Of a stretch of DNA of 64,000 nt, positions 1,935 through 2,297 are shown one piece after another (position 1 is the first letter of the stretch; each line of letters starts with the position of its first letter). Below the pieces are notes generated by a model, which saw only the letters and a program-made list of their open reading frames with translations, made no database searches and was not told the origin of the DNA. The DNA is from Escherichia phage Pu-Krd-SF1, in the sequence record PQ249395; one strand, written 5' to 3'. A program made the position numbers and the translations under genes.

Positions 1935-2297
1935 ATGAAAGCATATCAAATTCTTGAAGGCACACATAAAGGTACTATTTATTTTGAAGACGGTGCTCAA
2001 GCCCGGATTATTGTCTCTAAGACTTTTAAAGAAGACGCTATTGTAGACCCGGAAATTTTCTACGGTTTGCATGCCCGTGAAATTGAAATTGAGCAACAGC
2101 CTACAGTTAAAATTGAAGGTGGTCAACACCTGAACGTTAACGTTCTGCGTCGTGAAACTCTGGAAGATGCAGTTAAGCATCCGGAAAAATATCCGCAGCT
2201 GACCATCCGTGTATCCGGTTATGCAGTTCGCTTTAACTCTCTGACTCCGGAACAGCAGCGTGATGTTATCGCTCGTACCTTTACCGAGAGTTTGTAA
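1935..2297 (+). CDS. Autonomous glycyl-radical cofactor, GrcA/YfiD-like (T4 Y06I-type)
   Basis: C-terminal ...[60 protein letters not shown] carries the RVSGY glycyl-radical motif and matches E. coli GrcA C-terminus as recalled. Confidence 0.8.

Follow-up and report, generated by a model that had tools for sequence, protein, structure and literature searches.

T-even phages break down the chromosome of their host and carry chemical marks on their own DNA, and they are usually treated as nearly closed to host gene exchange. The gene vs.6 of Escherichia phage Pu-Krd-SF1 (PQ249395) raises the question of how a segment of almost unaltered host sequence came to lie within a gene of such a phage. 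In this work, we analyzed a stretch of 64,000 nucleotides (nt) from this record, hereafter the window, in which vs.6 occupies positions 1935-2297 on the plus strand. Its open reading frame (ORF), a Pfam match, phrog_1209, and the structure PDB 6OWR identify the product of 120 amino acids (aa) as the orthologue of T4 Vs.6/Y06I, a protein resembling the autonomous glycyl-radical cofactor GrcA. The original prediction, made from the letters alone, had described a chimera built on a recently captured host segment. The 3' half is indeed recent Escherichia grcA, but an old phage gene appears to have been there first, with an N-terminus collinear with that of GrcA and a phage-type tail. Our preferred reading, to which we assign a probability of about 85%, is that an internal patch of ~170 bp in an old phage homologue of grcA was replaced by host grcA via homologous recombination, and that a Klebsiella event occurred independently.

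In a blastn comparison against 5,426 complete Escherichia coli genomes, vs.6 matched grcA in all 5,426, with query positions 179-363 (window 2113-2297) aligned at 96.2-96.8% identity. In pairwise alignment, the identity to E. coli grcA begins abruptly at TTGAAGGTGG (2113); it is 41-43% on the 5' side of this point, and past the stop codon the two sequences are dissimilar. Three parts of the gene can be delimited, all on the plus strand. The old phage-type 5' part (1935-2112; aa 1-59) is AT-rich and, judging from nucleotide identity, codon usage, and profile-profile comparison, is a diverged homologue of the GrcA N-terminus. The host-derived tract (2113-2284) is defined by identity to E. coli grcA, corresponds to positions 200-371 of that gene, and encodes the glycyl-radical domain. 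The phage-type tail (2285-2297; ..T-E-S-L-stop) is recognized by comparison with phage homologues and E. coli. Relative to an SK1144-type E. coli allele, the first 148 nt of the tract (2113-2260) are exact, and the six mismatches (2261, 2264, 2285, 2288, 2291, and 2292) are all synonymous, with four of them in the tail, that is, in the last 13 nt of the gene. The tail codons are GAG AGT TTG, as in other phage homologues, versus GAA AGC CTG in E. coli. Overall, direct comparison of identity gives 98-100% between the tract and E. coli alleles and ~43% for the 5' half, and the tail is phage-type.

The suspected host origin of this segment held up when T4 and other T-even homologues were compared, the same E. 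coli-like tract being present in T4 and a Mosigvirus. For the core tract (grcA positions 201-369, window 2114-2282), the window phage agrees with K-12 at 166 of 169 positions (98.2%), and both T4 and Mosigvirus RPN187 agree at 168 (99.4%). T4 has 178 nt (grcA positions 200-377) exactly as in the SK1144-type allele, which is an extant E. coli allele. By comparison, the grcA genes of Citrobacter and Salmonella are 91.9 and 83.8% identical to E. coli, respectively, over the 185-nt 3' segment and 91.1 and 82.2% over the 169-nt core. Of the 57 third codon positions of the tract, only one distinguishes T4 from E. coli, compared with 15 of 57 for Citrobacter and 27 of 57 for Salmonella. Because the tract is nearer to E. 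coli than the Citrobacter or Salmonella genes are, the donor was Escherichia itself. Within the 5,426 genomes, a megablast search with the whole window gave a sole match, at 2113-2301 (grcA, with a weaker pflB match at 79%). The genes pflB and tdcE were also considered as donors of the tract and rejected, as their DNA identity to it is just 76-79%.

Base composition and codon usage shift along the gene as well. The composition break that had been noticed from the letters is real, both in GC content (37.6% in 1935-2112, 47.6% in 2113-2297, and 34.2% over all 64 kb) and in codon rank, but it lies at 2113, the earlier estimate of ~2095 being 18 nt too early. With a codon table built from 68 other genes of the window and scores ranked among 12,921 windows of 56 codons, the codon likelihood of the 3' tract falls in the lowest 4.7%, and that of the 5' half is at the 60th percentile. 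In the 3' part, leucine is encoded by CTG in five of six cases (background 8%) and proline by CCG in all three (background 15%). In sliding windows, the GC content of third codon positions (GC3) rises from about 0.13-0.40 to 0.27-0.53, so that the anticipated shift is present, albeit blurred; GC3 is a weak discriminator here because grcA has many T-ending codons. About 500 isolate genomes that were sequenced independently, T4, T2, and RB-type phages among them, have this tract with the same junctions.

Some details of individual tracts may bear on when and where they were acquired. At grcA position 240, T4 and the window phage have CGT, which was read directly in SK1144, and K-12 has CGC. SK1144 belongs to the E. 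coli genomes closest to the window copy (96.8% identity), as does the BL21-derived Nico21(DE3), for which CGT is deduced from the identity value. Conversion over decades of propagation on E. coli B in the laboratory is conceivable, and this codon speaks neither for nor against it. Yersinia phage phiD1 (HE956711.1) has an E. coli-type tract (96.8%), and Yersinia grcA is only ~85% identical to E. coli in this region. Two other phages were compared with the window copy rather than directly with E. coli, namely, Yersinia phage PST (KF208315.1; 96.8% in DNA over the whole region) and Proteus phage Isf-Pm2 (OL741432.1; 97.5% in protein); these identities make it very likely that both carry the E. 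coli tract. What the tract records may be the natural host of the phage over the long term and not the host used for isolation.

For the 5' half, pairwise BLASTP found no similarity between Vs.6 aa 1-59 and GrcA aa 1-66, and the N-terminal half alone matched no NCBIfam model. In profile-profile comparison (hhalign) of nine phage with fourteen bacterial N-terminal halves, phage positions 13-59 were collinear with GrcA 17-66 (probability 91.6%, E = 8e-7), the input alignments being shallow (Neff about 1.8). The phmmer alignment to 6OWR likewise reaches back to Vs.6 aa 20. At the nucleotide level, the 5' half of the window copy is 71-95% identical to those of other Tevenvirinae; it is 92% identical to T4 and closer to the Mosigvirus copies (94-95%). 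We thus read the 5' half, from these alignments, as an old, diverged, and collinear GrcA N-terminus, and vs.6 as a full-length old GrcA homologue.

Homologues of vs.6 were found in 1,587 phage records, which include Tequatrovirus, Mosigvirus, Jiaodavirus, Karamvirus, Slopekvirus, Pseudotevenvirus, Krischvirus, T5-like Demerecviridae, an Aeromonas phage, and jumbo phages. In most of these phage genera, the 3' part is diverged: its identity to the best bacterial grcA is 80-84% in CC31, Matisse, and Miller, 71-79% in ECD7, MIZ4, T5-like phages, PSTCR5, and fHe-Yen9-04, and 63% in phiAS5. A fresh host tract was absent from all Karamvirus, Slopekvirus, Krischvirus, T5-like, and jumbo-phage homologues compared, and no phage record covered ≥80% of host grcA. 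Between T4 and Mosigvirus RPN187, third codon positions differ at 11 of 59 in the 5' half and at 0 of 57 in the tract (p = 0.0006), which indicates a more recent origin for the tract than for the remainder of the gene. As side observations on Escherichia phage MIZ4 (Krischvirus; L013, 392-1202), an HNH endonuclease gene lies directly 3' of its vs.6 homologue, and this homologue differs from that of the close relative ECD7 in its unusually diverged 3' end (RISGYAT.., at most 69-71% to the grcA of any bacterium).

A second donor is found in phages of Klebsiella. The Jiaodaviruses KP17, AM_K5, and KP179 have a phage-type 5' half (71-74% to T4 and 97-98% to one another) and a phage-type tail (..TFTEAL), and the tract between them specifies LLDAVEH, the variant found in Klebsiella, in host codons that end in G or C. 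This tract is 97-98% identical to a grcA allele that encodes exactly GRCA_KLEP7 (K. pneumoniae) and 86-89% identical to E. coli. Scanning of metagenome contigs with a degenerate 50-mer from the Jiaodaviruses gave 44 matching stretches: 40 were bacterial-type grcA, mostly on large human-gut contigs, two were Jiaodavirus contigs (L105 and the partial L138), one was too short to be classified (L127), and one was a hybrid (L143). The dominant bacterial allele, present in 21 contigs, encodes exactly GRCA_KLEP7. KP17 agrees with it at 164 of 169 positions, with an exact run of 104 nt, and the best match of AM_K5 is another Klebsiella allele (162/169). In the reverse search, the K. pneumoniae-type allele matched 106 of 50,697 phage records at 95-99%; the best matches listed run from grcA position 202 (199 in one case) to between 369 and 374, as exemplified by KPV15 (98.2% over positions 202-369). 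As the tract is of E. coli type in Tequatrovirus and Mosigvirus but of K. pneumoniae type in Jiaodavirus, there were at least two independent host-to-phage events with different donors. Within Jiaodavirus, 16 of 160 sites vary in the tract and 6 of 178 in the 5' half (p = 0.015). When the entire 3' region of five Jiaodavirus sequences is considered, there are 20 variable sites, and for 13 of these all the states seen in the phages are also found in Klebsiella alleles. Like the T4-RPN187 comparison above, these counts point to a tract of more recent origin than the remaining gene, and the two results together are compatible equally with conversion that happened repeatedly and with converted alleles that spread from phage to phage.

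Several other records turned up beside these Klebsiella-type sequences. 'Salmonella phage PSE-D1' (ON550260.1) has a Klebsiella-type tract (97.1%). The hybrid L143 (OIEZ01001054.1, 3616-3903) is a bacterial contig in which a Klebsiella grcA-type 5' part is joined to a pflB-type 3' end (..SLTKEQQQDVITRTFTQTM), and it is either an assembly chimera across a shared stretch or the product of grcA/pflB conversion in a bacterium. By eye, the KP179 tract appears to have an identical stretch of ~35 nt in common with this contig. Among GTDB contigs, enterobacterial grcA was seen on a record titled 'Klebsiella sp. WOUb02 plasmid unnamed4' (L036; 275 kb) and in an assembly labelled Vagococcus sp. WN89Y (L044), the latter looking like contamination or mislabelling.

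The order of events can be read from three features taken together. The collinear GrcA-type N-terminus, the diverged full-length homologues, and the host tract that ends inside the gene argue that the phage gene came first and the host patch later. The left junction (2112/2113) coincides with the loss of all phage-host DNA similarity, and the right junction lies ~13 nt before the stop codon. Since the TAA of vs.6 overlaps the ATG of vs.5 (TAATG; vs.5 ATG at 2297-2299), the stop codon must stay phage-type. With both crossovers inside the gene and at the limits of homology, homologous patch replacement (gene conversion) is favored over end-joining capture.

The alternative of end-joining would be a chimeric fusion, in which illegitimate recombination would have joined a piece of host grcA to an unrelated phage ORF and so created a new gene. 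The abrupt switch at 2113, from ~42 to >96% identity, is what such a fusion would produce, and the blank BLASTP result between the phage and GrcA N-terminal halves, as well as the lack of an NCBIfam match for the former, points the same way. However, the collinear hhalign match and the extension of the phmmer alignment to aa 20 speak for a related N-terminus. Full-length homologues with the same N-terminal type and AT-richer, diverged 3' parts exist in Karamvirus, Slopekvirus, Pseudotevenvirus, and others. Moreover, the right junction falls within the gene and leaves a phage-type tail, and the Jiaodaviruses pair the same phage-type 5' half with the tract of another host. We consider a fusion unlikely.

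Under patch replacement, a series of steps can be proposed. T-even phages fragment the host chromosome during infection. They also run very active UvsX-dependent recombination (for the machinery, see PMC3016280). A host chromosome fragment with grcA would then invade the vs.6 tract and be copied in; as the grcA tract is the only host homology in the 64 kb, a host fragment could invade there. Crossovers would be limited to the part of the gene still similar enough to the host gene, and each conversion would restore perfect homology and so make the next one easier. A further and tentative suggestion, to which we would give less than even odds, is that conversion from host to phage has a standing hotspot in the 3' tract of vs.6, which keeps the radical domain matched to PflA, PflB, and GrcA of the enterobacterial genus of each lineage and, as a by-product, records the natural host.

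Several points weigh against this account of recurrent host patching. T-even phages degrade host DNA and use modified cytosine, features usually thought to limit host exchange, so the event may be rare. The tract common to Tequatrovirus and Mosigvirus may go back to one event that spread among phages instead of to repeated transfers from the host. Searches of the phage records for tracts of Salmonella or Enterobacter type gave none, with best matches of 83.8 and 88.7%, respectively; host-matching is therefore not general. The T5-like homologues are diverged and, if functional, imply that host identity is not strictly required; the host identity of the tract is either selected or a neutral by-product. 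Identity, boundaries, donor genus, N-terminal homology, and recurrence come directly from the comparisons, and the homology of the N-terminal halves rests on the hhalign probability of 91.6%; for the recombination mechanism, the direction of transfer, and the selective advantage, we infer from patterns in the sequences. The Klebsiella alleles are a biased sample, having been collected by a phage-seeded scan, and were labelled only via an exact protein match. The metagenome phage contig L105 has an exact run of 158 nt with the dominant allele, a length that could be inflated by an assembler consensus with host reads. Finally, Vs.6 scores 158.3 bits with the GrcA equivalog model of NCBIfam (TIGR04365), below its cutoff of 170, in an alignment of Vs.6 aa 18-120 to profile positions 23-126 of 126; the shortfall is due to the diverged N-terminal half. 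Vs.6 is expected, from its sequence, to work like GrcA without being a strict equivalog.

The assignment of Vs.6 to the glycyl-radical family is itself clear. Pfam Gly_radical (PF01228) matches aa 60-101 (E = 2.2e-18; 67.1 bits versus a gathering cutoff of 22.2), the RVSGY motif is present, and the last 60 aa show no difference from those of E. coli GrcA, in agreement with the earlier description of this region as GrcA-like. The phrog_1209 match covers positions 1-120 of 121 (E = 5.9e-63) and, together with the conserved position beside vs.7 and vs.5, places the protein in the Vs.6 orthologue group. The window protein has 96.7% amino-acid identity to T4-type Vs.6, and the gene is annotated as vs.6/GrcA in T2. 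As T4-type genomes carry one GrcA-like gene, we equate vs.6 with the UniProt entry Y06I (Y06I_BPT4). Among solved structures, the top phmmer match is E. coli GrcA/YfiD (PDB 6OWR; aa 20-120 to 26-127, E = 1.9e-42), followed by a match of aa 58-120 to PflB 697-759 (E = 6e-26), with the motif RVSGYAV in common. The architecture is likewise that of GrcA: a free-standing protein of 120 aa (~14 kDa) with the C-terminal 60 aa of GrcA and a collinear N-terminal profile match. From the translation and the alignment to GrcA and pyruvate formate-lyase (PFL) chains, the putative radical carrier is Gly95 in RVSGY, encoded by the GGT codon at 2217-2219 (+), which we take to be equivalent to GrcA Gly102 and PflB Gly734.

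The original prediction had proposed two clients for this spare radical domain, PFL and the phage's own NrdD. Rescue of PFL is documented in the literature for the T4 orthologue: according to PMC8683613, which cites Wagner et al. (2001), Y06I receives a glycyl radical from PFL activase and reconstitutes O2-cleaved PFL. The window protein, with a C-terminal domain identical to that of host GrcA, is expected to do the same. Gly95 would receive its radical from host PflA, and the domain would then stand in for the C-terminus that PflB loses when cleaved by oxygen, which would sustain the fermentative supply of acetyl-CoA and ATP in microaerobic infected cells.

The second proposal, in which the patch is real and its main client is phage NrdD rather than host PFL, did not fare as well. 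The gene nrdD is present in the window (20002-21819, +), as an uninterrupted ORF of 605 aa with a Gly_radical domain. T4 nrdD is interrupted by a group I intron, and the window copy appears intron-less. T4 NrdD is known to be truncated by oxygen at the glycyl radical site, and the Aeromonas phage phiAS5 homologue of vs.6 lies between nrdG and nrdC. An older genome paper also guessed at a role in nucleotide metabolism for vs.6 (PMC1524935). However, the radical site of NrdD reads RRTCGYLG, and BLASTP detected no similarity between the C-terminal domain of Vs.6 and the window NrdD. The domain is that of GrcA and matches PflB as described above, and the published biochemistry is rescue of PFL (PMC8683613). 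NrdD as the main client is therefore quite improbable.

A very improbable alternative is that grcA was captured whole in a single ancient event, after which the 5' half evolved fast and the 3' half was held by purifying selection and codon adaptation. The C-terminal domain is strongly constrained in all homologues, and host-preferred codons could in principle be selected. However, protein selection cannot keep 57 third positions identical, as the values given above for T4, Salmonella, and Citrobacter illustrate. Homologues in T5-like phages, Krischvirus, and Karamvirus, presumably under the same functional constraint, are at 71-82%. The Klebsiella phages match Klebsiella alleles rather than E. 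coli, and the Jiaodavirus tract is more variable than the 5' half.

Equally hard to sustain is the reverse direction, in which phages donated the 3' region of grcA to bacteria. Phages can move DNA to hosts, and identity alone is symmetric. However, the tract has the codon usage of enterobacterial genes with high expression, which is not typical of the phage. The two parts of bacterial grcA diverge in parallel (3' 80-92% and 5' 69-89% to E. coli), as vertical descent predicts, and T-even phages are strictly lytic. An artefact, in which host reads or DNA were merged into phage assemblies at this similar region, is conceivable for metagenome contigs such as L105, where host and phage have long identical k-mers in common, but can practically be dismissed given the same tract and junctions in about 500 isolate genomes, the phage copies' own synonymous differences and phage-type tail, and the intact reading frame and translational coupling to vs.5.

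With patch replacement as the preferred reading, vs.6 can be set beside known systems. T4 Vs.6 (Y06I_BPT4) has the same position between vs.7 and vs.5, length, E. coli-like tract, and junctions, at the 96.7% protein identity given above; relative to it, the window copy carries four further synonymous changes, divided equally between tract and tail, and the 5' half is 92% identical. With E. coli GrcA/YfiD (127 aa), Vs.6 shares the C-terminal 60 aa, a DNA identity of 96-97% over 185 nt, and distantly homologous, collinear N-terminal regions, and both GrcA/YfiD and T4 Y06I are described as spare parts for PFL (PMC8683613). The N-terminal half of Vs.6 differs in having ~30% aa identity, being seven residues shorter, and lacking the conserved NSFWLLD and RC..AK motifs, and vs.6 is expressed from a phage early-gene cluster rather than a host promoter. 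The C-terminal glycyl-radical domain of PflB/TdcE has the same fold element and RVSGYAV; Vs.6 is different in being a free-standing 14-kDa protein. Host-phage intragenic recombination has been reported for cyanophage psbA and psbD (Sullivan et al., 2006; PMC1484495), where a phage copy of a host metabolic gene is likewise mosaic with host alleles and is seen as local shifts in identity or composition. In contrast, the recipient of vs.6 patches is a lytic T-even coliphage with modified DNA, the exchange is confined to one fixed window of ~170 bp bounded by loss of homology, and the genus of the donor, Escherichia or Klebsiella, depends on that of the phage.

In the literature searched, the gene appears only as a conserved ORF with a Gly_radical match, in a genome comparison from 2006 (PMC1524935), or under the name Y06I in biochemical work. 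Our literature search found no description of host-level DNA identity or genus-specific tracts in vs.6, with the limit that the T4 genome review (PMC150520) and Wagner et al. (2001) may hold an earlier notice. The gene and its biochemical role are thus already known, which makes the finding evolutionary rather than functional, and the recurrent host patching appears to be undescribed. It was unexpected that a classic model phage holds 148-178 letter-perfect host bases inside a much older phage gene. As a small and cleanly bounded natural system, vs.6 could serve for measuring the frequency of recombination between lytic phage and host DNA, and it allows one to ask whether auxiliary metabolic genes must match host partner proteins. 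The real host genus of a phage may also be readable from the tract. For annotation, "GrcA" in these phages denotes a mosaic that fails the strict equivalog threshold.

The surroundings of vs.6 are those of T2/T4-type genomes, in which the neighboring genes are annotated as vs.7, vs.6, vs.5, and vs.4, with vs.6 between vs.7 and vs.5. The window segment 1500-2800 is 100% identical to Escherichia phages Pu-Krd-SF5, Pu-Krd-SF6, and Pu-Krd-SF7 and ~97% identical to T2 and other Tequatroviruses. A Shine-Dalgarno-like GAGG (1926-1929, +), read from the letters, lies 5 nt 5' of the vs.6 ATG and may serve in its translation. A promoter and terminator scan of 900-3200 gave nine hits, compared with 8.0 ± 2.9 in shuffled sequence, with no excess and no plus-strand terminator within the cluster. 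As these counts are at the level of shuffled sequence, we do not claim an own promoter for vs.6. An antisense ORF of 127 aa (1920-2303, -) that spans all of vs.6 was set aside as a by-product of sense coding with no supporting evidence.

Two genes 3' of vs.6, vs.4 (2511-2777, +) encodes the anti-CBASS sponge Acb2 (Pfam Acb2_Tad1_hairpin, E = 7e-20), and it is labelled 'anti-CBASS protein 2' in a related phage. In Jiaodavirus, vs.4 occurs as two clearly diverged alleles (KP17/L105 versus AM_K5/KP179), which part right after a conserved gene start. Farther 3' of vs.6 are genes for an SLT lytic-transglycosylase-like protein (vs.1; 3584-4129, +; E = 5e-5) and a Macro-domain protein (4460-4939, +; E = 1e-7), both between vs.6 and an ORF at 5315-5896. 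This ORF putatively encodes a thymidine kinase, and vs.6 lies in the early region regB-vs-tk.

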